Positions 3,771 to 32,602 of a DNA stretch of 37,747 bases are shown here, in pieces. This DNA comes from a virus (Duplodnaviria > Caudoviricetes): positions 1 to 37,747 of the IMG/VR virus record IMGVR_UViG_3300037692_000053, one strand, 5' to 3'. Position numbers and translations under genes: made by a program. The first letter of the stretch is position 1, and each line of letters opens with the position of its first letter. The notes under the pieces are model-generated. The model saw only the letters and a program-made list of their open reading frames with translations, was not told the origin of the DNA and ran no database searches.

Positions 3771-3799
3771 TTGCTACGTTTAATAATTTAATACAGCAA
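3771..3799. repeat. 29-bp dispersed palindrome copy 1
   Basis: TTGCTACGTT-TAATAATTT-AATACAGCAA, directly after the stop of 3800..4381. Confidence 0.9.
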
Positions 3800-4381
3800 T
3801 TACTCTTCAACTACATGCCCATTACACTGGGCCAACTCTATTGCTTTGTCCTTAATCCGTTGAAGGTCATCAGATGTGAAGTGTGCATGAAGGTTACGAG
3901 TGTTGATAGTTTGAGCAGCCTTACCTAAATGGCGATCCAGAACTCCATTACATTCTTTGAGGATTGAGTTAGCAGAAGCAGTCTGACCATGAACAGTACC
4001 GTCTTCAAGAACTTCCCTGATGCATTTCAAAGCGATGGGGGCTAAGTCCATAATGTCCTTAGCTAAATCAATACAGCCAACGTCTCTAGCAGCGCCCATA
4101 AGAGAAAGACGTTCCTTAACGACTGGTGAGTTACGTACATTACTGACTTGCATCACCGAGAGGGACATTGAGTCAGCGATGTCTTTATTGGTTTCACCCA
4201 ACAAAATGCGCCTCGCGATCTCATGATGACTTTCCCACATCTCTGAGACTTGCCAACCTTTCTTTTTTCCAGATTTAAACCCTTTAGACTTTCGCCCGTC
4301 AGTCCTATCTGACTGCGAATACCTGTCACCATAATCATAAGTAACATGTTCCCCCTGTGCATTAATTGTATTAGTTTCCAC
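3800..4381 (-). CDS. HTH protein, probable terminase small subunit
   Basis: HTH-like HHEIARRILLGETNKDIADSMSLSVMQVSNVRNSP followed by a helical region; first gene of the leftward virion arm; GTG start with GGAG RBS. Confidence 0.5.
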   Translation of the reverse strand: METNTINAQGEHVTYDYGDRYSQSDRTDGRKSKGFKSGKKKGWQVSEMWESHHEIARRILLGETNKDIADSMSLSVMQVSNVRNSPVVKERLSLMGAARDVGCIDLAKDIMDLAPIALKCIREVLEDGTVHGQTASANSILKECNGVLDRHLGKAAQTINTRNLHAHFTSDDLQRIKDKAIELAQCNGHVVEE

Positions 4382-4720: not shown

Positions 4721-4749
4721 TTGCTATGTTGAATTAATAAACATAGGAA
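4721..4749. repeat. 29-bp dispersed palindrome copy 2
   Basis: TTGCTATGTT-GAATTAATA-AACATAGGAA in the divergent intergenic region. Confidence 0.9.
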
Positions 4750-5794: not shown

Positions 5795-6212
5795 CTCTCT
5801 CCCATAATTGTAAATGGATGAATACAATTATGGGGGAAATGATAGATAAAAAGCTTGTTGAAAAAAAAAATAAAAAATTAATATAGATATATATATATAT
5901 CTATTCATTTATACATATATTTACATATTTACATTATTATATTATAGTTAACTGTCTTATTTATATATTACTATAAATTATATTAGATATGTATTTAATC
6001 ATTTATAATTATGGGGGAGAGCGTGATAATTTGAACACATATGACATAATGACATATGGATGCATTCCATTTTTCCATTCACAACATTCACAACATTATT
6101 ACATTCATGTCAGCTACGCTGATAATCAACGCTGATAATTACTGTGTAACATAGAATGTTACAAATTGATACATAAGAAGTGTTACAAATTGATACAATG
6201 TTACACGTGTAA
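5738..6212. other. Candidate replication origin: ~75-bp imperfect inverted repeat around an AT-rich core, plus short direct repeats
   Basis: 5738-5815 aligns with the reverse complement of 6001-6080; core has A10 and (TA)n; TGTTACAAATTGATACA at 6157 and 6181; ACGCTGATAAT at 6116 and 6129. Confidence 0.55.
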
Positions 6213-7193: not shown

Positions 7194-7472
7194 ATGACTA
7201 ACCCCAACTACACCAATGCCCTAAACAAACTCGTCACCAAAGGTGACACTTGGAGCATCCCCAGTCAACAGCATCTTCAGGAAGGTGACACAGGTGGACC
7301 ACAAGTCAACACCATCAAAGAAATTCTTAAGTTGTGGGCAGCCCTAACTGTAATTGCCCTGGTCATTCTCACCTGCATTTACTCCCTACTCATTGAGGTA
7401 AGTGAACCAGGCACCACAGGACGAACCCTGAAAGTAGTATTGGTGACAGGTTGGGAATGGTTGCTGCGTTAA
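7194..7472 (+). CDS. Hypothetical membrane protein
   Basis: 92 aa; one hydrophobic segment LWAALTVIALVILTCIYSLLI; AAGGAG RBS. Confidence 0.65.
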   Translation: MTNPNYTNALNKLVTKGDTWSIPSQQHLQEGDTGGPQVNTIKEILKLWAALTVIALVILTCIYSLLIEVSEPGTTGRTLKVVLVTGWEWLLR

Positions 7473-7489
7473 ATTAATGAATGCAGCAA
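7461..7489. repeat. 29-bp dispersed palindrome copy 3
   Basis: TTGCTGCGTT-AAATTAATG-AATGCAGCAA, overlapping the stop of 7194..7472. Confidence 0.9.
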
Positions 7490-9311: not shown

Positions 9312-9848
9312 ATGTCAAAACTGGAACAAATGAAAACACGTGAAGCAACTCACGCCCTCAGCACTAGGGTGGACGCTAGATACTTAGCCACCCTAATGTT
9401 ATTCTGGCGTGATCAACAGTGTCTCCCCACCTCCCTATCTGAACTTACCCGTCTAAGTTTGGAGTCCTTTGCTGAATTCCTTGTAAGTAATGGAATGGTA
9501 GAATTTGTGGAGACTCACGAAGCTGCTCTGGAAATCATGAAAGGTTTGGGAATGAATCCTAAACGTGTCAACTCTAAGTATCTGGCCCAGGCCATCCTGA
9601 AATCTTCAGCAGATATTAATCTCTCCTTCCTTAATAGTCCTGTTGTAGACCACAAGCACAAACTCACAGTGCAGGAGGCTGCGGGAGTCTCATCTATCGA
9701 CGTCAGTAGGGTAATTTCGGCAATGCAGGAATCTGAATCCACTTCTGCCTCAGACCGTGTAAAGGCTGCGCAGGAGAGGGCTGAAGAATTCACCCGTAGT
9801 CTTGGTGAAATTCCTAAAGAAATCAAACCTGTTGATGATGCGGAGTAA
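9312..9848 (+). CDS. Hypothetical protein, possible ribbon-helix-helix regulator
   Basis: 178 aa; N-terminal THALSTRVDARYLATL...SLSELTRLSLE has a strand-helix-helix pattern. Confidence 0.6.
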   Translation: MSKLEQMKTREATHALSTRVDARYLATLMLFWRDQQCLPTSLSELTRLSLESFAEFLVSNGMVEFVETHEAALEIMKGLGMNPKRVNSKYLAQAILKSSADINLSFLNSPVVDHKHKLTVQEAAGVSSIDVSRVISAMQESESTSASDRVKAAQERAEEFTRSLGEIPKEIKPVDDAE

Positions 9849-10136: not shown

Positions 10137-10320
10137 ATGAAACTGTGCAAAGACTGCTTGCATCTCTCTAAATTGAAAACTGTAACTACTTCACCATACA
10201 CAAAGTTTTAGAACCTGTCAACGGAACTCAAATCTCTGTACCTCTCCACCCTTCAAATTCTCGGGGAATGAAAGTTACTGCGGCGCCAGTGGGCGCTGGT
10301 TTGCTTCATTAAATAAATAA
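10137..10320 (+). pseudogene. Frameshifted small Cys-rich gene (or two sequencing errors)
   Basis: AAGGAG RBS; MKLCKDC.. / ..NCNYF..EPVNG.. / ..YCGASGRWF lie in three successive frames. Confidence 0.5.
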
Positions 10321-10329
10321 ACATAGCAA
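10301..10329. repeat. 29-bp dispersed palindrome copy 4
   Basis: TTGCTTCATT-AAATAAATA-AACATAGCAA. Confidence 0.9.
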
Positions 10330-11654: not shown

Positions 11655-11683
11655 TTGACAACCATATCCACATGTGTTATATT
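11655..11683 (+). promoter_or_regulatory. Strong sigma70-type promoter
   Basis: TTGACA-17 bp-TATATT with TGn extended -10. Confidence 0.8.
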
Positions 11684-11771
11684 GTCAATTCAACAATGGG
11701 GATCGGCCCCAATCCTGACACCTTCCATAACGGATGTGTCTAACAGTAAATTCTGAATGAGGAATAAGATC

Positions 11772-12185
11772 ATGGCAAAAGAACTCGTAGTCGCTCGCTT
11801 CCAACTTAAAGATGAAAACAACAACGCTATCCTGGATGAAGAAGGAAAAGCAACTTGGCAAGAAGCCTCTGTGGAATATGACTTTGGTGACAACTTGGAT
11901 ATGGCCGTAGAAGCCTGTGGTGCTGACACCGTCTTCTCTAACTTCAAAGCTAACGCTCGTGTAGCTCTGCAAAGTATTGTACGTACCCATCTGAAAGCCG
12001 GTAGTGATGCTGAAAAGATTCAGGCCGTAGCAAACGCTTGGAAGCCTGGTGTTGTTGCTGAGAAAGTTACTGTTGACCCCAAAGCTGCTTTCATGGCTGC
12101 ATTTGCTTCTTACCCACTCGAGAAGAAACTTGAACTCCTGAAACAGTTTGGTGTTCCTGAGGATGCCCTGGCCTCAATGTCGTAA
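11772..12185 (+). CDS. Hypothetical protein in its own promoter-terminator unit, probably highly expressed
   Basis: GAGG RBS before ATG 11772; GCT/GGT/CGT-rich codons; flanked by a promoter and a terminator. Confidence 0.8.
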   Translation: MAKELVVARFQLKDENNNAILDEEGKATWQEASVEYDFGDNLDMAVEACGADTVFSNFKANARVALQSIVRTHLKAGSDAEKIQAVANAWKPGVVAEKVTVDPKAAFMAAFASYPLEKKLELLKQFGVPEDALASMS

Positions 12186-12198
12186 GAGAAGGGTAATT

Positions 12199-12236
12199 TC
12201 CCTGGCGGACTTGTTGTCCGCTGGGGATTTTTATTT
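12199..12236 (+). terminator. Rho-independent terminator
   Basis: TCCCTGGCGGAC-ttgtt-GTCCGCTGGGGA followed by TTTTTATTT. Confidence 0.85.
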
Positions 12237-13360: not shown

Positions 13361-13389
13361 TCGCTTCATTAAATAAATAAACATAGCAA
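13361..13389. repeat. 29-bp dispersed palindrome copy 5
   Basis: TCGCTTCATT-AAATAAATA-AACATAGCAA, immediately after the ligase stop. Confidence 0.9.
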
Positions 13390-13987: not shown

Positions 13988-14237
13988 ACTCAAATCTGTA
14001 TACTTTGCACCTGACGGCAAATACTTCCCCACCCGTGAAGAATGTGTTCGTTATGAGGAGATTCAAGAACTCTCTAAACTCATAATCACTACCTCAAATA
14101 AGCTTAATCAAAACGAGTCTTACATCTTGGCTGAAAAACTTCATGCTAAGTACAACCTGATTGACAAATCAGTTTATGGTGAAATAGGTGAATTTGCCCT
14201 AAGTATTTATAAGAAAGATCCGGAGGTGAAGAAATGA
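13980..14237 (+). CDS. Hypothetical protein
   Basis: 85 aa, GAGGAG RBS, A.DGK.F.T.EEC..YE N-terminus. Confidence 0.75.
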   Translation: MAELKSVYFAPDGKYFPTREECVRYEEIQELSKLIITTSNKLNQNESYILAEKLHAKYNLIDKSVYGEIGEFALSIYKKDPEVKK

Positions 14238-15202
14238 TAGTCCCAAACCTTCCTGTTCCCTCACATCCTTCCCATGAGATCATGGACAGCACCAAACTCA
14301 AAGAGTACATGGAATGTCCTAGGAAATTCTTCTATAAGTATATTCTAGGCTGGAACTCCTCACGGCCCTCCAATCACTTGGTCTTCGGCAGCGCCGTGCA
14401 TCTGGCCATGGAACACTTAATCATAAACGGCTATCACGCCAATGCTGTGGTCGATGCTATGGAACTCTTCAACTCACACTACCGGGAGCAGTTTCCATCT
14501 GAGACTGACTTCCTGTATGAACCTAAGACTCCTATGCGTTTCTTTGGCCTCCTCCTAGAGTATATTAAGGAATATGCTACTGACCACCATGACTTTGAAG
14601 TCTACAAGACAGAAATCGGAGGAACCATTCCCCTCAGTTCTAATCTGAATCATGTGTTAGCCTGGAAGATGGACACCATCCTCTTCAATCGCCACACGCA
14701 GATGTACTTCTCATTGGAGCACAAAACTAAACAGGGTAACTACATCAATAAGTCTTATGAGATAGATTTCAAAATGGGTCCTCAGGTCGGCACCTATACA
14801 CATGTCCTTAACAGTCTGTTCAATCCTATGGACGTGGAAGGAATAATAATCAATTGTATGTGTATGAAAAAGACCAAACAGCCAGAATTTATCTTAAAAA
14901 GAATTCCTATCCACATGAATAATACCAACATGCTGGTGTGGCTCGAGATGTGTAAATCTTGGCTGGACACCATTCACCAGGACTACCTAGCCCTTAGTGA
15001 AGCTAGTGACAAAGATGACGTCTTGAAACCCTTCAAAATGAATCCTGGCTCATGTAGTAACTGGGGAGCAACCTGCCAATACTGTGATTTATGTACTTCA
15101 TGGCCCAACCCTCTCCAACACCTGAATCAAATGCCCCTCGATATAGAGATGAGGTTCTGGAATCCTTTGGAGGAAGAGTTGAGGGAGAAGATGATATTAT
15201 GA
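14234..15202 (+). CDS. PD-(D/E)XK Cas4/RecB-like exonuclease
   Basis: CPRKFFY, FGSAVH, MD...EHKT catalytic motif, C-terminal C..CQYCDLC (Fe-S ligands). Confidence 0.85.
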   Translation: MIVPNLPVPSHPSHEIMDSTKLKEYMECPRKFFYKYILGWNSSRPSNHLVFGSAVHLAMEHLIINGYHANAVVDAMELFNSHYREQFPSETDFLYEPKTPMRFFGLLLEYIKEYATDHHDFEVYKTEIGGTIPLSSNLNHVLAWKMDTILFNRHTQMYFSLEHKTKQGNYINKSYEIDFKMGPQVGTYTHVLNSLFNPMDVEGIIINCMCMKKTKQPEFILKRIPIHMNNTNMLVWLEMCKSWLDTIHQDYLALSEASDKDDVLKPFKMNPGSCSNWGATCQYCDLCTSWPNPLQHLNQMPLDIEMRFWNPLEEELREKMIL

Positions 15203-17353: not shown

Positions 17354-17382
17354 TTGCTACATTAAATAAATAAACGTAGCAA
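17354..17382. repeat. 29-bp dispersed palindrome copy 6
   Basis: TTGCTACATT-AAATAAATA-AACGTAGCAA. Confidence 0.9.
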
Positions 17383-18308: not shown

Positions 18309-18673
18309 TATTTAAACTAAGCCCTAAAGGACTAAAATTGGCTGAGGAATTTGAACAGTTGTTTGGGGACGTAGAATGCACATGTGCTCTATACGATCCT
18401 GATGTTGAAGAGGTGTGGTTCTGTGCCAAATGCAAGCATCCCGGCAACCCTCAGAACATCCAAGAAGACGACTCTAACATAACCAACATCTTAATCTCAA
18501 AACAGGACGTGTTTGAATCTACTGCATGTTCTCATGTGTGGGGCTACACTAATAACCCACTCAGATTAATAACATCTCAGGAACAATTTAAATCTGTACC
18601 TGATCTGGAAAATATAATCCCTTTCCCTTACTGCCCTTACTGCGGTATAAAACTTCCTAAGGTATCTGTATGA
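18305..18673 (+). CDS. Cys-rich hypothetical protein
   Basis: CTC, CAKC, CPYC motifs; GGAGG RBS. Confidence 0.7.
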   Translation: MIFKLSPKGLKLAEEFEQLFGDVECTCALYDPDVEEVWFCAKCKHPGNPQNIQEDDSNITNILISKQDVFESTACSHVWGYTNNPLRLITSQEQFKSVPDLENIIPFPYCPYCGIKLPKVSV

Positions 18674-20013
18674 AACTAGAAACTCCTGAAATTCCCCTCT
18701 CCTCAATTGAACTCGGTTCACGCTACAGAGACGATTATGGGGATATTCCTCAACTAATCCACAGCATCAAAAAGAATGGACTAATCACACCTATCGCTGT
18801 AGGTGTAGCTGACAAGATCAACATCCCTCGTACCACAAACCTTCCTTACATCCTCCTTGCTGGTGGGCGCCGCATGAAAGCCCTCACAGAGATGGGCTGG
18901 ACTATGATCCCTGTTCGAATCTACGACCAACCTATCTCCATCCTTGACCTCCGTTCTATTGAATTGGCCGAGAATTTCGATCGTAAGGAAATGACCTACC
19001 CTGAACAACTTGCTCTAATGAAAGAGATAGATGATTTACAGATGGCAATCCACGGCCCTAAGATTGCGCGTAGTGCAGGTGCTCCTGGTTGGAGTCAAGC
19101 TGATACAGCCAAACTTCTTAAAAAATCTCCGGCCTCTGTAACTATTGACCTTCAACTGGCCCGTGCTATCGAAGATCATCCTGAACTCCAGTTGGATAAA
19201 TGTAAGAATAAGGCCGAAGCTCTGAAGCGTCTTAAGAATGTAACCAAAATTGTAACCAACAGTCTTCAAGCCCAAACTTACACCAAAACTGTAAACGGCA
19301 CAGGTTCCTCTGATCAAATGTTCCGTAAGCTCTGTTCCAACTACATCATTGCTGACTGTCGTACTATAATGAAAGGTATGCCCTCCAACTCACTCAACTT
19401 CATTGAAATAGATCCACCTTACGCAATCGACCTACCCTCCGTTAAATCAGATAACGAATGTATTGGATACAATGAGGTAAAGGTTAAGGATTATGAACCT
19501 CTAATGAAGACTATCTTATGGGAATCCTATCGTCTTCTTAAGGAAGGTTCATGGCTAATTGTCTGGTTTGCTGCTGACCCTTGGTTCCAGCCAATGTCTG
19601 AGTGGATCAGGGATGCAGGTTTCAAGATGAACCTCCTCCCTGGAATTTGGACTAAACCTCAAGGTCAAACTGCTCAACCGGAAACTTATCTGGGAAACTC
19701 TTATGAAATGTTCTTCTACGCCCGTAAGGGTAAGGCACGTCTACAAAAACCTGGCCGCTCAAACATCTTTGACTTCAAACCTGTGAATCCATCTCTAAAA
19801 TACCATCCGACACAACGCCCCCTGGACCTCATGAAGGAAGTCTATTCTACCTTCGCTTCCCCTAACTCCAACGGCTACATCCCTTTTCTTGGCTCAGGAG
19901 TTGGCCTCCTCACTGCACATGACCTTAGTATGAATATGATAGGCACCGACCTTACGCAAACTTTCAAGGATGGGTACATCTTGGAAATTAAAAAGTTAAC
20001 TGGAGCAAACTAA
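18670..20013 (+). CDS. ParB/Spo0J-like CTPase + HTH fused to beta-class amino (N6A/N4C) DNA methyltransferase
   Basis: ParB: SIKKNGLITPIAV, LAGGRRMKA, ENFDRKEMT; HTH: WSQADTAKLLKKSPASVTIDL; MTase: DPPY, HPTQRP, PFLGSG. Confidence 0.9.
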   Translation: MKLETPEIPLSSIELGSRYRDDYGDIPQLIHSIKKNGLITPIAVGVADKINIPRTTNLPYILLAGGRRMKALTEMGWTMIPVRIYDQPISILDLRSIELAENFDRKEMTYPEQLALMKEIDDLQMAIHGPKIARSAGAPGWSQADTAKLLKKSPASVTIDLQLARAIEDHPELQLDKCKNKAEALKRLKNVTKIVTNSLQAQTYTKTVNGTGSSDQMFRKLCSNYIIADCRTIMKGMPSNSLNFIEIDPPYAIDLPSVKSDNECIGYNEVKVKDYEPLMKTILWESYRLLKEGSWLIVWFAADPWFQPMSEWIRDAGFKMNLLPGIWTKPQGQTAQPETYLGNSYEMFFYARKGKARLQKPGRSNIFDFKPVNPSLKYHPTQRPLDLMKEVYSTFASPNSNGYIPFLGSGVGLLTAHDLSMNMIGTDLTQTFKDGYILEIKKLTGAN

Positions 20014-21334: not shown

Positions 21335-21363
21335 TTCCTACGTTTAATAATTCAACACAGCAA
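21335..21363. repeat. 29-bp dispersed palindrome copy 7
   Basis: TTCCTACGTT-TAATAATTC-AACACAGCAA. Confidence 0.9.
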
Positions 21364-21578: not shown

Positions 21579-24125
21579 ATGTATAAAACAAAAGCTACCT
21601 ATGTTCACCCTTCAGGCAACCCTCTCACAGCCAAATACATTATTGTAGGCACTGTTCCAGACAAACTGGACATAATCAAAGGTAAACCGTTCTCTGGTTA
21701 TGATGGAACTGAACTCACTGAGGATCTTCACAAAGCAGGCATCAGTAGGGGTGACTGCTACTTCACATATGTCATTAAGGATGCTGATCGTCCTCTTGCT
21801 TTCTACATAAAACCTCAGTTTAGAAACAAAACCATAACTGGCTACACCATCACGGAGGAGGGCCAGAAATATGTAAACCTCCTCGCAACTGAACTATCCA
21901 AATGCACCTCCTCTAATGTTATAATAGCATTAGGAGATGTACCCCTATTCATCTTGGGTGATCGTCAGGGAATTATGAAGTGGAGGGGCTCAGTCATACG
22001 TCCCACCCTGATGAACGGTAAGAATTTAATCGGGGCAGTTGATCCTAAAACAATTACAGGTGAGTGGGGGAATTATGGCAACTTTAAGAATCGAAGATTG
22101 CTCATCATCGACCTTATCCGCGCTAAGAAAGTGGCTCTTGGAGAGTGGAACTGTATACCACGTTCCATCACTATTAGACCAAGTTTCAATCAATGCTTAT
22201 TATTCCTTAGGGCCTGCGAACAGTATGGACTCCTAGGTAACATTATCTTCTATGATATCGAAGTGGATATGTTTAACGGTGAGATGACCTGTATATCTCT
22301 GGCCTTCACTTCATCCGATGTAATCTCCATTCCGTTCACATGTGAGCACGGAGATTACTTCACACTCCCTCAGGAGATTGAAATCCTACAATTCATCGCA
22401 CGGATTTTGGAGAATTCTGATATTGAAATAGGTGGACAAAACCTAAGCTTCGACTCCAACTATTTAATGAGAAAGTATGGTATCTGCGTTACCTCGATGC
22501 ATGATACGATGGTGGCACAGAAAACTCTTCTTCCTGACTACCCCGTAGGATTACATTTCATCTGCTCCACATACACCGATATTCCTTACTACAAGGATGA
22601 TGGGAAGTATTGGATTAAGGGACAGATTGGAACGTATGAGATGTTCTGGAAATATAATGCAATGGATTCAGTAGTATGTGCTGATGCATTTCCTAAACAG
22701 TTAGAAGCGTTGAAGAAACAGGGGAACTACTCAACATACTTGAGGAAGGTGCGTAGTATTCCGGCCTACGTATATATCATGGAGCATGGGATTAAGATTA
22801 ATCTGGAGACAATGGTTGCAACTTATGACAAACTCAATAGAGACGCTCTTACTGTACTCCAAGAATTGGAGGGAATCGCAGGAACTCACCTAAATCCAAA
22901 TTCGCCAAAACAAATTGCTTCTTACTTCTATGACACTAAGAGACTTCCAGCTTACAAATCTAAATCTGGTGGACGAAGTACTGATGAGAAAGCTCTCAAG
23001 CGAATCTCCCGTAAGGGTTACAAGGAAGCCAAGCTCATCCTTAAATACAGACATCTTATCAAAACTGCTTCCACATTTCTTAACCCTGCCAAAGTTGACA
23101 CAGATGGTAGAATGCGATGTTCCTACAACCCTGTCGGAACACGTTACGCCCGCGCCTCCTCCTCTGAAAACATTTTCGGCACAGGAAATAATCTCCAGAA
23201 TCAACCACACGAAGTACTTACCCACTTCGAGGCTGATCCAAACTATGTATTTTATGGCCTTGACCTTAGTCAAGCCGAGAATAGAATCGTCGCTATGGTC
23301 GGGCGCATCTCGCAGATGATTGAGTGTTTTGAAACTAAGAAAGACGTTCATAGTTTGGTTGCTACTATCATGGCCAACCTGTACTATGGAGGAAAATTAC
23401 CTGTGGGCTTTGATCCCAAGAAAACTCTGGCCCCTATTGGTGACGGCACTAAGTGTTGGCGTGACTGGGGCAAAAAAACTGGCCATGCTGCCAACTACAA
23501 CATCACTTACAAAACCCTCTCCCTGTATAATGAGATACCTGAACGTGACGGAAAGACCATATTAGAAATTTATCACAAAGCTTTTCCTGGAGTCCGAGGA
23601 GGCTACCATGCTTACATCCAACAATGCATTAATAAGAACCGAACCCTCCGCAACCTCATGGGACGGATTACTCTTTTCACTGATAAACTCGACGAGTCCC
23701 TTTATACTGAGGCATACGCATGTATCCCACAGGGTACCGTTGGAGACGTTATTGATGAGCGAGGGCTCAATTTCATTTACTATAACACAAATCCCTTATT
23801 CAAACTTGTGGAGTTGTTGATTCAGGTGCATGATCAGATAGGGTTCCAGATTCCCACCCCTTATCACCCAACTCGTCCTGTGCCATGGGAAGATCATAAC
23901 GCCATTCTTCAAATGGTCAAGGGATCATTGGAGACTCCACTGTACACCCACTATAAGTATAAGTTTGTCATTCCAGTTGATATCACAATCGGGATATCTC
24001 TTAACAAAGACCTTGGTAGGGACTTAAAACAGTTTGATCACAGAACTTTGGAAAGCTGTTACGAAGACCTGTTCTACACAAAGAGAGAGAATTCTCATTA
24101 CTTAATTGAAGAGGCTAAAGCATGA
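21579..24125 (+). CDS. polA: Family A DNA polymerase with N-terminal UDG-like domain and 3'-5' exonuclease
   Basis: UDG4-like N-terminus (G.P..A.YIIVG..P...GKPFSG); exonuclease YDIE, QNLSFD, YNAMD; polymerase motifs A DLSQAENR, B RDWGKKTGHAANY, C VHDQ. Confidence 0.93.
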   Translation: MYKTKATYVHPSGNPLTAKYIIVGTVPDKLDIIKGKPFSGYDGTELTEDLHKAGISRGDCYFTYVIKDADRPLAFYIKPQFRNKTITGYTITEEGQKYVNLLATELSKCTSSNVIIALGDVPLFILGDRQGIMKWRGSVIRPTLMNGKNLIGAVDPKTITGEWGNYGNFKNRRLLIIDLIRAKKVALGEWNCIPRSITIRPSFNQCLLFLRACEQYGLLGNIIFYDIEVDMFNGEMTCISLAFTSSDVISIPFTCEHGDYFTLPQEIEILQFIARILENSDIEIGGQNLSFDSNYLMRKYGICVTSMHDTMVAQKTLLPDYPVGLHFICSTYTDIPYYKDDGKYWIKGQIGTYEMFWKYNAMDSVVCADAFPKQLEALKKQGNYSTYLRKVRSIPAYVYIMEHGIKINLETMVATYDKLNRDALTVLQELEGIAGTHLNPNSPKQIASYFYDTKRLPAYKSKSGGRSTDEKALKRISRKGYKEAKLILKYRHLIKTASTFLNPAKVDTDGRMRCSYNPVGTRYARASSSENIFGTGNNLQNQPHEVLTHFEADPNYVFYGLDLSQAENRIVAMVGRISQMIECFETKKDVHSLVATIMANLYYGGKLPVGFDPKKTLAPIGDGTKCWRDWGKKTGHAANYNITYKTLSLYNEIPERDGKTILEIYHKAFPGVRGGYHAYIQQCINKNRTLRNLMGRITLFTDKLDESLYTEAYACIPQGTVGDVIDERGLNFIYYNTNPLFKLVELLIQVHDQIGFQIPTPYHPTRPVPWEDHNAILQMVKGSLETPLYTHYKYKFVIPVDITIGISLNKDLGRDLKQFDHRTLESCYEDLFYTKRENSHYLIEEAKA

Positions 24126-24443: not shown

Positions 24444-24472
24444 ATGCTACATTCAATAATTCAACACAGCAC
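24444..24472. repeat. 29-bp dispersed palindrome copy 8
   Basis: ATGCTACATT-CAATAATTC-AACACAGCAC. Confidence 0.85.
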
Positions 24473-26482: not shown

Positions 26483-26752
26483 ATGACTACAGATATTTAT
26501 GTACACGTGGAATATGATATAGTTAAAGATTTATTTAAGGTAGATTCAAATACTAGAGAACCTAAAGATATCATAATGAATTTTATAAGAATTCAAATGG
26601 GGGCAGGTAAAGATAACACACCTGCTAATATACAAGATATTTATAATATAAAAGTTCATCTTGATCTATCAGAAGATATCTTTACCTGTACTTATGACTG
26701 TGGTAATAAGGAATTAAGAGAAGGAATATTAATGAGATATGTAGAATCTTAA
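26483..26752 (+). CDS. AT-rich hypothetical protein, last gene of rightward arm
   Basis: 89 aa, AAGGAG RBS; stop overlaps the convergent stop (TTAA). Confidence 0.7.
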   Translation: MTTDIYVHVEYDIVKDLFKVDSNTREPKDIIMNFIRIQMGAGKDNTPANIQDIYNIKVHLDLSEDIFTCTYDCGNKELREGILMRYVES

Positions 26753-29700
26753 AACCCCTCAGTACTGAGTCCTCCTTCTAGTCCTCCATCTAACTGTGGT
26801 GGCCTAGGAGGAGTTCCCTTACCAGCCTTCACATATATGCCAAGTAGGATCTCATACCAATCTCCACCATTACTACTAGTCCTTATACTCTTCGCAATCT
26901 GATTGGTCATAGGAATTCCGAATCCCAATCCCAATACCTTACCAACTAATAGTTTGGTCTGCAACTTCTCCTTATCAGTCATATACTCCCAGTCCAAACT
27001 CTTCACTGCAGCCTCTAATGCTTCAGGTGCCTGAGTTGCCAATTCCCCTAACGGACCTAATAAACTAGTACTATACTTAGCACTACCACCAATGATAGGA
27101 ATGACTTCCAAAAATTCCATCATGGCCTTAGCCACAGCTGTCCTATCAGAATCCCCTTCACCTTTACTTTCCCCAAACGCTTGAATAGGTGAAGGATTCG
27201 GAGCATCTATTCCGGCCAACTGAAATGTCATATTGACCAACGCAGCACCTGTTAAATATCTGAGTACTCTCTTAGTCTGTACAGTCTTAGTTATGTCTGG
27301 ATTCTTAATCCCCAATAGATCCCGTGCAATGAAGTTAAAATCAGCTATAGCATACGTCTGCAACATCGTCAGCCACTTCACACTACTTACGCTCTGTATA
27401 GGACTCACCGCACCCCTGATTCCTGCACCCTGAGTTTTCATAACTAAGTCATCTGCCCACTGCACAGCCTTCCCTTCATCCAACTTCAGAACCCTCTTAG
27501 CATACCCATACCCTGCATTCCATCCACTCTCTGCTACCATAGCATCAACAAAGTTCATTGGGGCAGAAGTAATATCATAAGCCATTTTCCTCACACCTAC
27601 CACCTTACCCAGGCTCATAGCCTCAGCTATCTCGGTCAGGATTAACTCGGCACTTCTTACACTAAGTACATTAGATTTCAGTGCTGCTTCAGTCTTTCCT
27701 CTAAGCATGGGTTTCTCTAACATCATCTTACCCACGCCACTAATAACATCCCTAAATGTAGTAAGACTAGCAACTCCCTTGAGTGCCGTCGGCTGAACCA
27801 TTACTGTGCGGAGATTCCCAAAGATCATACCTGCTACTACATTTTTATGTAGGGTGGAGAATCCTCTAGCCACCGTAGGCAACTTTGAGGTGAGTGCAGC
27901 AGTTGAAGGATCAATACCTAAAATTTCATCTGACCATTCCAACAAAAGTTTTCCTAATCCAGGATTCCTGTCCATCAACCTGAAACCTTTCTTTAACTTC
28001 ACCCCTTTCACCTTCACAGGCCCAACCGCAGCTTCCTTCGCCAGTGCTGCAATTGGTGCTACATGAATCTCCTTCATGGCATAGCCCATGTAAGTCTCGA
28101 AGGCATTAAATATGTCTAATTCTAGGGGAATATCTGTAATCTTCCTTGGCTTATCGAATGGAAAGAAAGTTCCTTTAAAGTTCTGCAATGCTCCGTTAAT
28201 CTTCGAAGGTGGGGCAGTCAACAATGAGTCGTTGACTCCAGCTTTCCTTAGAGCATTCTGCTTGTGAATAAATGGGAAGTAATTATCTAATTTCGGCAGG
28301 GGCTTAAGTCCTATATGACTCCTAACATAATTAATTCTATCCCACAACTTATCATACCTCTCCCTCATCTGTGTAATGACCTCAGCCATCTTAGGTGTTA
28401 AGGGTGGAATCTCTTTAATCCCATCAGCAGCCAATGCACTTAATCCACCCTTCTGATCTGCAATAGCATTGATGGACACAGCGCGGCGTTCCTCAGTGGT
28501 GAGGGTCTTAGCAAAGTCCTTAACCTCCTTCACCACAACCCTACGTTCTTTCTCAGAATCTGTTAACTTAGCTAACCACTTATCAAAAAACTCTTCCTTA
28601 ACTCCCTTACCATATCTCTCAAATGCATGAATACGGGTCTCAGTTCCTGCCATGAACTTACCCAATGGACTCGTCCCCCACTCTAACTTACGTGCGGAGT
28701 GAATTGCCTGAAATGTTTTAGCTGTCAGTGGTACATTCTTACGCCCCTTACTATTAGTACTGTTTCTATGCATCACTACAGTACTGGGATCAGGATTAAT
28801 GATCCCTTCAATAATAGGATCAGCTTTCCTAACTTCATCCTGCATTTGTGGTAGCTGCAACATCTGCTCCATTATCTTCCTTGCAGTCTCAGGTTCCACT
28901 CCTATCATATCCAGCATTTCTTCTACTGACTTACCTAGGGACTTAGCCTTCTCCTCAATCCGTTTAAGCTTATCCGCTGCAATCTTAAGGTCCGTAACAT
29001 CTACAGAACCTCTCTCATTATTAAACACATCCCACAGATTCCTAGTACCAGTATCACTAAGTTCCCAATAAGGAGAATCTTCATCAGTAAGACGTTCTGT
29101 GCTTCGATCTCTCTTACCACCTTCTCCAACTTCTTCCAATGAGTCCCAGGCATAATCTTCTAGCTCCTTAAATTCAGGTTCTATATACCAACGTTTGGTC
29201 AACGGATCTTGCGTAGGTCTACCCAACGTTCCAGTTTCTGCAGCGTACTCAACCAGCTCTTCGTAAGTTTTAAAAGTTGCATACTTATCATCTACAATGG
29301 CAAGGTCTGATTCCTTCATAGGTGTCTTTGTTTGATGCTTTTGTACTATATTAAAATCTTTCTTATTAAATACTCTGATAACACTAGCCCCATCTTCAAC
29401 TTGCCAATTACCTTTATAACCTAGATCCTCCAAAGTAAACTTGCTAGCAGGTCTTTCATATACAGCATAGTTACCATCTTCTAAAGACTTCCTTAACATA
29501 CCTTCATTAATAATATTATACTTCTTTTTATATTCCTTAATAAAAGCTTCTACATGTTCAGGATTCCTAGCATCAAATATTTTATCTTTGGGTATTTTTA
29601 CTTCATGAATATTCTTACCAAATTTACTTGCTACTTTAGGATCTTCTGTAGCAAAATATCCTCTATGTCCATCAGGCATATCAGCAGAAGATTTAAGTCT

Positions 29701-31278
29701 AACATTATTACCATGGTATAAGGTATAAGAATTTTCCTGCGTTAAATTATTAAACGCAGCATCCTCATTCAACTTCTCTACCTTCTTAGTCTTCCACTGT
29801 GAATACATCTGCTGAAGGTCTTGAGCTGTACGTGCCTTAACTTTAGGAGTCTCAGGAACTTTAGTCTCCTCTGCCAACTTCTCAGCAGCTTTCCTCTCCT
29901 CCAACTTCTGCTTAAGATCACTTCTGATTTGACGTAAGTCTTGTTCCTTCACAAAATTCAGAGGAAGTACTGGAGTCTCAATCGTTGGGAGACCCTTAGG
30001 TTCTAACAACATTTCTGGTGAAGCCTGTCCTACATACTTCTCCGCTACTTGTTCTCTACTCAGAACAGGTTCCTTAAGAGCTGAAGTAATCTTATCAAAT
30101 TTAGTCTTAACTTCAACTGGGTCTGTAGTCAGGGTTTGAAAATTTCCTTTAGTCTCTCCATCTCGCCATTCATGAACAGTGATTTCTCCAATCTTGTTGG
30201 GTCCCAGATATTCCATCTGAGGAGAAATTTCCCTACCTACCTCCTCAGGAGTTTTAATCTGCTCAACTGGTTTAAGTCCTTCTTGAACTTCCTCAACAGG
30301 TAGAATCTCTGAAGGTTTATTAACTTGATTAATATCCTGTAATATAGGAGCCTGAGCATCTCGTTCCTCCTTAAGTTTCTGAACTAACTTACGCACCTTA
30401 CCTTCGGCCTTAGATATCTTATTCATATCCAGAGTCCCAATATCTTCACCATGGTCCCTTACCACGTCTAGGGCTTTCTGATAAGAAGCTCTCCTAGGAC
30501 CCGTCCTCTTGTCTACTTCCTTCTGTAACCCTTCCAAGATGAATTGATTCTCAGGAAACTTAGCAACAGGAACTTCACCCTTCTTAACTTCTGGCTTAAG
30601 TTTTCCTACTTGACTCAACACATCTGTAAGTATATCAGGTTTAACATCAGGAGTAGCAACTTTAACTTCTTCAATCTCCTTCGGAGTTAGTTTCTCCCCT
30701 CTCTTAATCTTCTTAGCCACATGAGGCAATCCTACCAGAGCTGAATCAAACACAAACTGACCTGCCTTAACTTGTTCATCTGAGCCCCCTAGGGCCTTAA
30801 CTCCAGTCTCAATTCCTTCATGTGCAACTGTAAATGGACTAGCTGCAACTTCAGCCACAGTCTGACCAAATCTACTCTTAGGTTTAAATGAGAAGGATTC
30901 CATAAAGGAGTCCATCCCCTCCTTCGCTGCAGCCAAGCCGGCTGTAGGTTTACCTGCTAATACACCTCCCAATACAGTTGGAGCTTGACTAAGTACAGCA
31001 GGGATGAAACTCGCAGCACCACTAATCACTGCACCAGGCCCTTCAACAAGTCCCTGAGCCACATCAGCACCCTCTCTAAGCAGGGTCTGTCCAGCTTCCT
31101 TTAACATCGGAACTAAATCTCTTGTCTGGGGGACATCGACAGAGGGGTTAGTAGATGTTAATTGAGGAATAGGTTGCTGGACAGATTTATCTATTCCGCT
31201 CTCCGTAGGAGCACTATACTTCTGCCAAGGACTTACACCTTCACTTTCTTTATTATACTTCTCCCACGGATTACTCAT
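26749..31278 (-). CDS. Large internal virion/ejection (polyvalent) protein with ADP-ribosyltransferase-like domain
   Basis: 1509 aa; PWEKY/PWQKY N-terminus; internal LYHG...GYFATED...FG...IFD...LGYKG...IRVF; last of the ejection-gene cluster. Confidence 0.75.
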   Translation of the reverse strand: MSNPWEKYNKESEGVSPWQKYSAPTESGIDKSVQQPIPQLTSTNPSVDVPQTRDLVPMLKEAGQTLLREGADVAQGLVEGPGAVISGAASFIPAVLSQAPTVLGGVLAGKPTAGLAAAKEGMDSFMESFSFKPKSRFGQTVAEVAASPFTVAHEGIETGVKALGGSDEQVKAGQFVFDSALVGLPHVAKKIKRGEKLTPKEIEEVKVATPDVKPDILTDVLSQVGKLKPEVKKGEVPVAKFPENQFILEGLQKEVDKRTGPRRASYQKALDVVRDHGEDIGTLDMNKISKAEGKVRKLVQKLKEERDAQAPILQDINQVNKPSEILPVEEVQEGLKPVEQIKTPEEVGREISPQMEYLGPNKIGEITVHEWRDGETKGNFQTLTTDPVEVKTKFDKITSALKEPVLSREQVAEKYVGQASPEMLLEPKGLPTIETPVLPLNFVKEQDLRQIRSDLKQKLEERKAAEKLAEETKVPETPKVKARTAQDLQQMYSQWKTKKVEKLNEDAAFNNLTQENSYTLYHGNNVRLKSSADMPDGHRGYFATEDPKVASKFGKNIHEVKIPKDKIFDARNPEHVEAFIKEYKKKYNIINEGMLRKSLEDGNYAVYERPASKFTLEDLGYKGNWQVEDGASVIRVFNKKDFNIVQKHQTKTPMKESDLAIVDDKYATFKTYEELVEYAAETGTLGRPTQDPLTKRWYIEPEFKELEDYAWDSLEEVGEGGKRDRSTERLTDEDSPYWELSDTGTRNLWDVFNNERGSVDVTDLKIAADKLKRIEEKAKSLGKSVEEMLDMIGVEPETARKIMEQMLQLPQMQDEVRKADPIIEGIINPDPSTVVMHRNSTNSKGRKNVPLTAKTFQAIHSARKLEWGTSPLGKFMAGTETRIHAFERYGKGVKEEFFDKWLAKLTDSEKERRVVVKEVKDFAKTLTTEERRAVSINAIADQKGGLSALAADGIKEIPPLTPKMAEVITQMRERYDKLWDRINYVRSHIGLKPLPKLDNYFPFIHKQNALRKAGVNDSLLTAPPSKINGALQNFKGTFFPFDKPRKITDIPLELDIFNAFETYMGYAMKEIHVAPIAALAKEAAVGPVKVKGVKLKKGFRLMDRNPGLGKLLLEWSDEILGIDPSTAALTSKLPTVARGFSTLHKNVVAGMIFGNLRTVMVQPTALKGVASLTTFRDVISGVGKMMLEKPMLRGKTEAALKSNVLSVRSAELILTEIAEAMSLGKVVGVRKMAYDITSAPMNFVDAMVAESGWNAGYGYAKRVLKLDEGKAVQWADDLVMKTQGAGIRGAVSPIQSVSSVKWLTMLQTYAIADFNFIARDLLGIKNPDITKTVQTKRVLRYLTGAALVNMTFQLAGIDAPNPSPIQAFGESKGEGDSDRTAVAKAMMEFLEVIPIIGGSAKYSTSLLGPLGELATQAPEALEAAVKSLDWEYMTDKEKLQTKLLVGKVLGLGFGIPMTNQIAKSIRTSSNGGDWYEILLGIYVKAGKGTPPRPPQLDGGLEGGLSTEGF
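29734..29762. repeat. 29-bp dispersed palindrome copy 9 (intragenic)
   Basis: TTCCTGCGTT-AAATTATTA-AACGCAGCAT, read on the minus strand as DAAFNNLTQE. Confidence 0.85.
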
Positions 31279-32573: not shown

Positions 32574-32602
32574 TCCCTGTGTTTAATAATTTAACATAGC
32601 AA
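32574..32602. repeat. 29-bp dispersed palindrome copy 10
   Basis: TCCCTGTGTT-TAATAATTT-AACATAGCAA; outer bases double as the GGGAG RBS of 32048..32566. Confidence 0.85.

Follow-up and report, generated by a model that had tools for sequence, protein, structure and literature searches.

The window, that is, the whole analysed stretch of 37,747 nucleotides, is a linear virus record, a fragment that is about 78% complete. It carries a gene in which a ParB-type domain, a helix-turn-helix (HTH) and a methyltransferase are fused. The gene, its parts and two further large genes are as follows.

18670..20013, plus strand: ParB-HTH-methyltransferase gene, 447 aa, a core gene lying shortly upstream of the DNA polymerase
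18670..19044, plus strand: ParB-type nucleotide-binding domain, residues 1-125, with Box II GxRR and Box III ExxENxxR
19090..19239, plus strand: HTH DNA-binding domain, residues 141-190, with the predicted recognition helix at 154-169
19126-19149, plus strand: covarying residues 153-155, 159 and 160, within the HTH domain
19342..20010, plus strand: beta-class amino-methyltransferase, residues 225-447, with DPPY, a short TRD and then FxGxG, and a predicted dimer interface
21579-24125: DNA polymerase of family A whose N-terminal part is a UDG-family domain, found by Pfam search
26749-31278, minus strand: gene for a 1509-aa protein with no Pfam or PHROG match

The original prediction had described a ParB domain with GxRR and ENxxR motifs, followed by an HTH and a methyltransferase with the motif order of the beta class, DPPY before FxGxG. 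All of these elements were located, with LAGGRRMKA at residues 63-71, ENxxR at 101-105, the HTH at 141-157, DPPY at 248-251 and FxGxG at 406-410. Pfam ParB_N matched residues 24-86 at an E value of 1e-5, slightly below the curated cut-off, Pfam N6_N4_Mtase matched residues 243-434 (E 2e-13), and the PHROG families matched were ParB and MTase. The Box II and Box III motifs, as well as the methyltransferase motifs DPPY and FxGxG, are near-invariant in the clade (95-100% conserved), and residues G65, R67, R68, E98, E101, N102 and R105 are 100% conserved over 85 lineages. In a sequence search Noc aligned to the N-terminal half (E 2e-8) as the best PDB match there. The AlphaFold model (pLDDT 84.6, pTM 0.63) contains predicted helices at residues 143-149 and 154-169 and a long linker helix at 181-209, followed by a beta-class fold; the best Foldseek matches were CcrM, N4CMT, M.RsrI and M1.HpyAVI, and the N-terminal half matched Noc. 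The canonical ParB C-terminal domain is absent from the fusion. A homodimer was modelled with a score of 0.76, compared with 0.00 for the best control, the runs agreeing in 100% of the contacts and the partner having pLDDT of at least 77; among solved pairs 20 of 30 attain this mark, and among single chains 1 of 23. In the model the chains meet at residues 302-368, which belong to the methyltransferase, and this interface may reflect likeness to beta-class dimers of solved structure.

According to Pfam and PHROG scans, the plus strand carries a replication arm with ligase, PD-(D/E)XK exonuclease, Sak4, UDG-PolA and DUF3987 primase, while the structural genes are found on the minus strand. The PD-(D/E)XK protein (14234-15202) adjoins Sak4 and is annotated as an exonuclease. 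The window had been described as free of any recognisable ParA or restriction enzyme, and among its 62 ORFs neither a ParA nor a restriction endonuclease was matched in Pfam or PHROGs, the window being 78% of the genome and many of the ORFs family-less. The polymerase gene is split into two ORFs in some relatives. The 1509-aa minus-strand protein is probably an internal virion protein; its counterparts in relatives are 900-2550 aa long and tolerate embedded sites. Several non-coding elements were also recorded. A 32-nt inverted repeat (5795-5826 and 5990-6021) flanks AT-rich repeats between the two gene arms and is a candidate origin or genome-end signal. A terminator-like GC hairpin lies at 10281-10298, immediately before one of the palindromes listed below (site 4), and a strong sigma70-like promoter at 11655-11683 (11/12, with extended -10) and a clear terminator hairpin at 12199-12227 bracket the ORF at 11757-12185.

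Ten palindromes of 29 bp are distributed along the window:

Site 1, 3771..3799: intergenic, adjoins the stop codon of 3800-4381 (minus strand)
Site 2, 4721..4749: divergent region, within a doubtful 91-aa ORF
Site 3, 7461..7489: overlaps the end of 7194-7472
Site 4, 10301..10329: intergenic, right behind the GC hairpin
Site 5, 13361..13389: immediately behind the ligase stop codon
Site 6, 17354..17382: 1.3 kb upstream of the fusion gene
Site 7, 21335..21363: about 0.2 kb upstream of the polymerase gene
Site 8, 24444..24472: occupies a 44-bp intergenic gap
Site 9, 29734..29762: within the coding sequence of the 1509-aa gene
Site 10, 32574..32602: in the structural arm, where it occupies an intergenic gap of 37 bp

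These sites score 26-41 bits, far above the -0.9 of the next position in the window and the maximum of 13.8 over 200 Markov shuffles, and the eight seed sites scored 33-40 bits when each was left out in turn. A pattern search of the window returned the 10 sites and none for the reversed control. Gaps between them range from 950 to 5290 bp, and the interval of about 3-4 kb named in the original prediction was thus about right.

Relatives of the fusion protein were collected as 1329 protein clusters with E values of 0.001 or better among 7998 scored candidates. In all 119 loci selected by polymerase and having at least 4 kb of upstream sequence, a set that is partly redundant, the fusion gene lies upstream of the polymerase. 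In total, 215 loci were sorted into 120 lineages, of which 85 had a locus of at least 8 kb. Co-occurrence of gene and array across related phages had been proposed as a check, and it was found: with a threshold score of 25, a de novo palindrome finder passed 74 of the 85 lineages and none of 85 shuffles, one of the 74 (L214) being a coding-repeat artefact. The finder missed degenerate arrays. Four of the lineages below the threshold show two family-type sites each. With a family matrix, degenerate sites came to light in L240, L219, L243, L154, L145 and L006, and weak ones in L161. In L214, a locus of 17 kb with an intact-looking fusion gene, neither the de novo nor the family scans gave a site. 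Complete records contain 11-21 sites in five of six cases, and about 4-5 degenerate ones in the sixth. GenBank relatives, picked by their primase, had the array in five of five cases in which the gene was present, i.e., Desulfofustis MD01 (9 sites), Mel-JY34 (5-6), ctMlz233 (8), ctLwi270 (5) and VS-ABTNL-3 (4 exact copies, found post hoc).

No close relatives devoid of the fusion gene occurred among the 119 loci, and the negatives are six distant genomes from 26 primase matches, one record standing for 16 Pseudomonas ones. The palindrome finder saw no array in the distant gene-less genomes Kuura, Tiera and P5 (scores 13.5, 23.2 and 10.7, respectively; shuffles reach 23). Of the remaining three, vir526 reached 27.3 with two real copies, PaMx41 34.7 with a degenerate set, and EBPR3 47.9 with a different element. 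An exact count of gapped palindromes splits the two groups only partly, as Mel-JY34 was missed, ctLwi270 was weak and EBPR3 was flagged. In the partial genome of EBPR podovirus 3 (L172), where the fusion gene is absent, a near-identical 16-bp element of a different type is dispersed at positions 9394, 9432, 13809, 29046, 29089 and 38965, partly as inverted pairs that form long palindromes. A distant relative (L355) has three copies of a site with its arms around a short spacer; these arms resemble chromosomal parS.

In each lineage the geometry of the sites is kept, with an odd centre and an A/T-rich core, and the letters are the lineage's own. APC-corrected mutual information was calculated over 73 lineages, pairing the positions of the half-site with 1198 protein columns, those of the fusion plus the polymerase. 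Covariation of HTH and palindrome, the other comparison proposed beforehand, was evident: residues 153-159 of the helix were the best partners of bases -6 to -3, the top column being residue 154 for -6, 155 for -5, 153 and 155 for -4, and 159 for -3. For the outer positions, the top column was residue 144 at -8 and -7 and residue 160 at -10. Columns of the HTH hold 18 of the 100 top-ten places, against 4 expected. Position -6 was G only where residue 154 was H or R (12 of 12; 56 lineages with neither and 5 mixed; 9 parsimony steps), position -3 was C only alongside R159 (7 of 7; 5 steps), and position -4 was G only alongside D153 (7 of 7; 5 steps). M155 went with A in three lineages, a fourth having the base only (3 steps).

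The pairings were followed into a held-out set of 31 lineages, one of them probably an artefact. Eight lineages had both H/R at 154 and the G, two the residue only, one the base only and 19 neither (p 6e-5), and D153 with G was seen in four of four, with 26 having neither (p 4e-5), both p values ignoring kinship. The R159-C pairing held in only two of four. Glutamine at 154, which was not in the training set, was paired with A at -6 in four of four new lineages. In contigs from metagenome-assembled genomes (MAGs), R154-G was found in one of two, R159-C in one of two and D153-G in one of one. A further rule, relating 163R to an outer AG, was rejected as ancestry: it has one origin, and the held-out lineages included none with both, two with the residue only and five with the base only. 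In ParB and Noc, the first residue after G-K-S is reported to contact G if it is R and A if it is Q (PMC7383237), a published code with which the R-G and Q-A pairing at residue 154 agrees. Since G-K-S stands at 151-153 in many relatives, residue 154 is the equivalent of that ParB/Noc position. We take the parS base read by the equivalent ParB residue to lie about 6.5 bp from the dyad, compared with 6 here. The site length, 29 bp against the 16 bp of chromosomal parS, had been raised as an objection; it stands as a difference, and the worry is eased by the covarying inner bases, which delimit a core of about the size of parS with a conserved outer extension.

The trees of the fusion and of the polymerase are mostly congruent, which means that a part of the covariation is shared ancestry. 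Together with the one gene-bearing locus devoid of sites, this would suit a reading in which the palindromes are unrelated to the fusion protein and serve as boxes of a host regulator, promoters, RNA hairpins or terminators. In a test of 28 sister pairs, the recognition-helix set ranked second among 1280 windows, behind a window of the polymerase (rho 0.63 vs 0.67). Against such unrelated origins, the lineage-specific letters vary along with the recognition helix, a pairing that arose independently several times and succeeded in the held-out set. A hairpin or terminator role was rejected in its own right, as the arm mismatches are mostly non-pairing and the RNA folds mostly weak (0 to -11.4 kcal/mol). 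We regard an unrelated origin as barely credible. The link between HTH and palindromes, put forward as a hypothesis only, is now strongly supported by comparative evidence, namely co-occurrence, covariation and the held-out lineages, and from these sequence comparisons we conclude that the ParB-HTH-methyltransferase very probably binds the ten 29-bp palindromes.

A ParB fold, an HTH and dispersed palindromes are also what a centromere array of a plasmid-prophage with ParABS-like partition would present. Evidence from the relatives speaks against it: ParA was found above the PF13614 cut-off in none of 35 genomes (control 14 of 14), three weak ParA matches span only the first 40 profile positions, and an integrase was found in none of the 35. 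All 22 loci in the species-genome collection lie on contigs of at most 48.5 kb, i.e., phage-sized, and the relative MD01 is predicted to be strictly lytic (PMC10370329). Partition of this kind is accordingly considered very improbable. The 22 phage-sized contigs of the fusion family (L245-L266) were recovered in MAGs of very different taxa, including Dehalococcoidia, WOR-3, Syntrophomonadaceae and Woesearchaeota, and were probably mis-binned.

The layout of the sites bears on what the bound protein may do. In 36 of 37 loci the sites are spaced more regularly than random placement would give (in the window CV 0.37 vs 0.83, p 0.0025), and over the 37 loci the median largest gap between sites was 5.4 kb. 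The majority of 397 sites are situated at gene junctions, with 22 at convergent junctions and 97 deep within mechanically called ORFs; those of the window mostly fill tiny gaps directly behind stop codons. In 40 of 60 lineages a site falls within the giant minus-strand gene, with the reading frame varying, and the density is 54 sites in 295 kb of this gene vs 4 in 182 kb of polymerase. Of 89 mapped pairs of giant-gene sites, 46 are at homologous places. 

The frequent position at gene junctions, and the presence in many lineages of a site just upstream of the polymerase gene, would fit a global regulator that, bound at the sites, controls phage transcription through long-range repression or as a roadblock, the methyltransferase working locally or in trans. 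KorB, a ParB-family CTP clamp reported to repress from distal operators (PMC11790492), gives such a reading its precedent. The sites, however, fill gaps of a few dozen bases, and an operator role at sigma70 promoters was rejected, since 0 of 7 sites examined overlapped any of 58 sigma70-like hits. They also occur at convergent junctions and deep within a coding gene of 4-7 kb, their even spacing is not expected of operators, and regulation leaves the invariant catalytic motifs unexplained. We hold regulation of this kind to be rather unlikely. Even spacing and sites within a coding gene favour coverage of the molecule over operator function.

In the mechanism which we prefer, the HTH would bind the palindromes as loading sites of the fusion, a nucleotide-gated clamp would spread across the kilobases between neighbouring sites, and the methyltransferase would mark the phage's own DNA in cis. 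A homodimer joined by its methyltransferase domains is predicted by the model; it would close the ring, the enzyme dimer taking the place of the C-terminal dimer domain of ParB. Nucleotide binding, clamp closure and sliding are proposed by analogy with the biology of ParB, Noc and KorB. The whole model, comprising loading at sites, sliding as a nucleotide-gated clamp and methylation of phage DNA in cis, is in our judgement about evenly balanced between right and wrong. A ParB fold is reported to bind CTP, ATP or GTP in a manner that its sequence does not predict (PMC12704722). Fusions with an N6N4 methyltransferase were among 50 proteins screened for nucleotide binding in the same study, and its available text names none of them among the 11 binders (PMC12704722).

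The same binding evidence, and an enzyme of the DPPY type with a short TRD, would be compatible with a methylase that is tethered at its site and does not slide, so that its marks are confined to the palindrome and the bases next to it, as a timing or self tag. Phage ParB activators that do not need NTP have been reported; mutants in the NTP site of 5mYOX-associated phage ParBs are described as still functional (PMC13229309). The full conservation of the Box II and Box III residues throughout the 85 lineages stands against tethering, as does the selection for even spacing, which implies action at a distance, and we consider it improbable.

The mark may guard the DNA against host restriction upon the following infection, or serve as a self tag in replication and packaging. 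Anti-restriction is adopted as the default reading by analogy with phage orphan methyltransferases, which are reported to act often in this way (PMC10370329). The palindromic 4-mers CGCG, CTAG, GATC and CATG are under-represented in these genomes, and in bins of distance from the sites the observed/expected ratio of palindromic 4-mers was flat (0.90, 0.88, 0.91 and 0.88). No relaxed restriction-site avoidance was thus seen for palindromic 4-mers, either overall or near sites, and composition gives no support for broad anti-restriction. Nor did any di- or trinucleotide bias that would point to a methylated motif split six gene-positive from six gene-negative genomes, AG being over-represented in both alike. 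This lack of a compositional sign, the even spacing genome-wide and the core position beside the polymerase would suit a genome organiser, in which progeny DNA would be compacted, positioned or labelled for the terminase by clamps loaded at the sites, and methylation would be a secondary tag. The partner ATPase of the ParA family is absent in the 35 genomes, which counts against an organiser; we find it unlikely.

Within the preferred model of loading and methylation in cis, self may be told from non-self by address and not by motif throughout a large clade of phages that are lytic and podovirus-like. The clamp would load at private palindromes every few kilobases, even within genes, and drag a methyltransferase of low specificity along one molecule, while host and competitor DNA would stay unmarked; each lineage would rewrite its site and the reading helix jointly through a simple residue-base code. 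We put this forward tentatively, at slightly less than an even chance. Fusions of ParB and methyltransferase occur commonly in phages, with no DNA target or mechanism known for them so far. What is new here is that one large family of them gains its sites, together with a residue-base code that makes exact predictions for swaps, and the cultured phages VS-ABTNL-3 and Mel-JY34 of this family are test cases. If loading and spreading are true, they would constitute a new use of the ParB clamp, in which a DNA-modifying enzyme is delivered to one chosen molecule, and with it a new kind of self marking in the conflict of phage and host, as well as a natural set of orthogonal, site-addressed methylases.

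The fusion itself is known from the literature, and our search, which covered sources outside subscription journals, found no report on the palindromic sites; the available part of the pink-berry methylome paper (PMC9296519) holds nothing on MD01. The closest precedents by domain content are the phage ParB-N6N4-methyltransferase fusions (PMC12704722) and the ParB-methylase Bce_0392, which have the same domain pair. The former are reported to occur often in phages, and an anti-defence role is suggested for them (PMC12704722); for Bce_0392 non-specific nicking of DNA is reported by citing papers. The accessible portions of these reports present no HTH-site pair, cognate sites or recognition code. 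Phage ParB has also been repurposed for a DNA-modifying enzyme in the ParB-dependent T-dioxygenases, where it is a separate protein and, in the available text, has neither a DNA-binding domain nor a loading site (PMC13229309). The beta-class amino-methyltransferases CcrM, M.RsrI, M1.HpyAVI, M.BceJIV and rotifer N4CMT share fold and motif order with the fusion (Foldseek E 1e-15 to 1e-11), but none of them has a ParB-HTH module, and the identity to them is only 13-21%, so that modified base and target motif are not transferable.

Chromosomal ParB-parS and Noc-NBS have in common with the fusion the ParB N-terminal domain with Box II and Box III, the HTH and a palindromic site. The fusion differs in that it ends in a methyltransferase domain, is not accompanied by a ParA and belongs to the genome of a lytic-type phage; the phage site measures 29 bp around an odd centre and varies from one phage lineage to another. 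The OB sites of plasmid RK2 are dispersed, and some are located within genes. Their protein, KorB, is likewise described as a ParB-family clamp of a mobile element which loads at operators and acts at a distance (PMC11790492). KorB is a repressor that works with KorA and has no enzyme domain, whereas the fusion has an intact methyltransferase and evenly spaced sites. The system works like ParB, Noc and KorB at dispersed sites, and is neither a ParABS nor a restriction-modification system.
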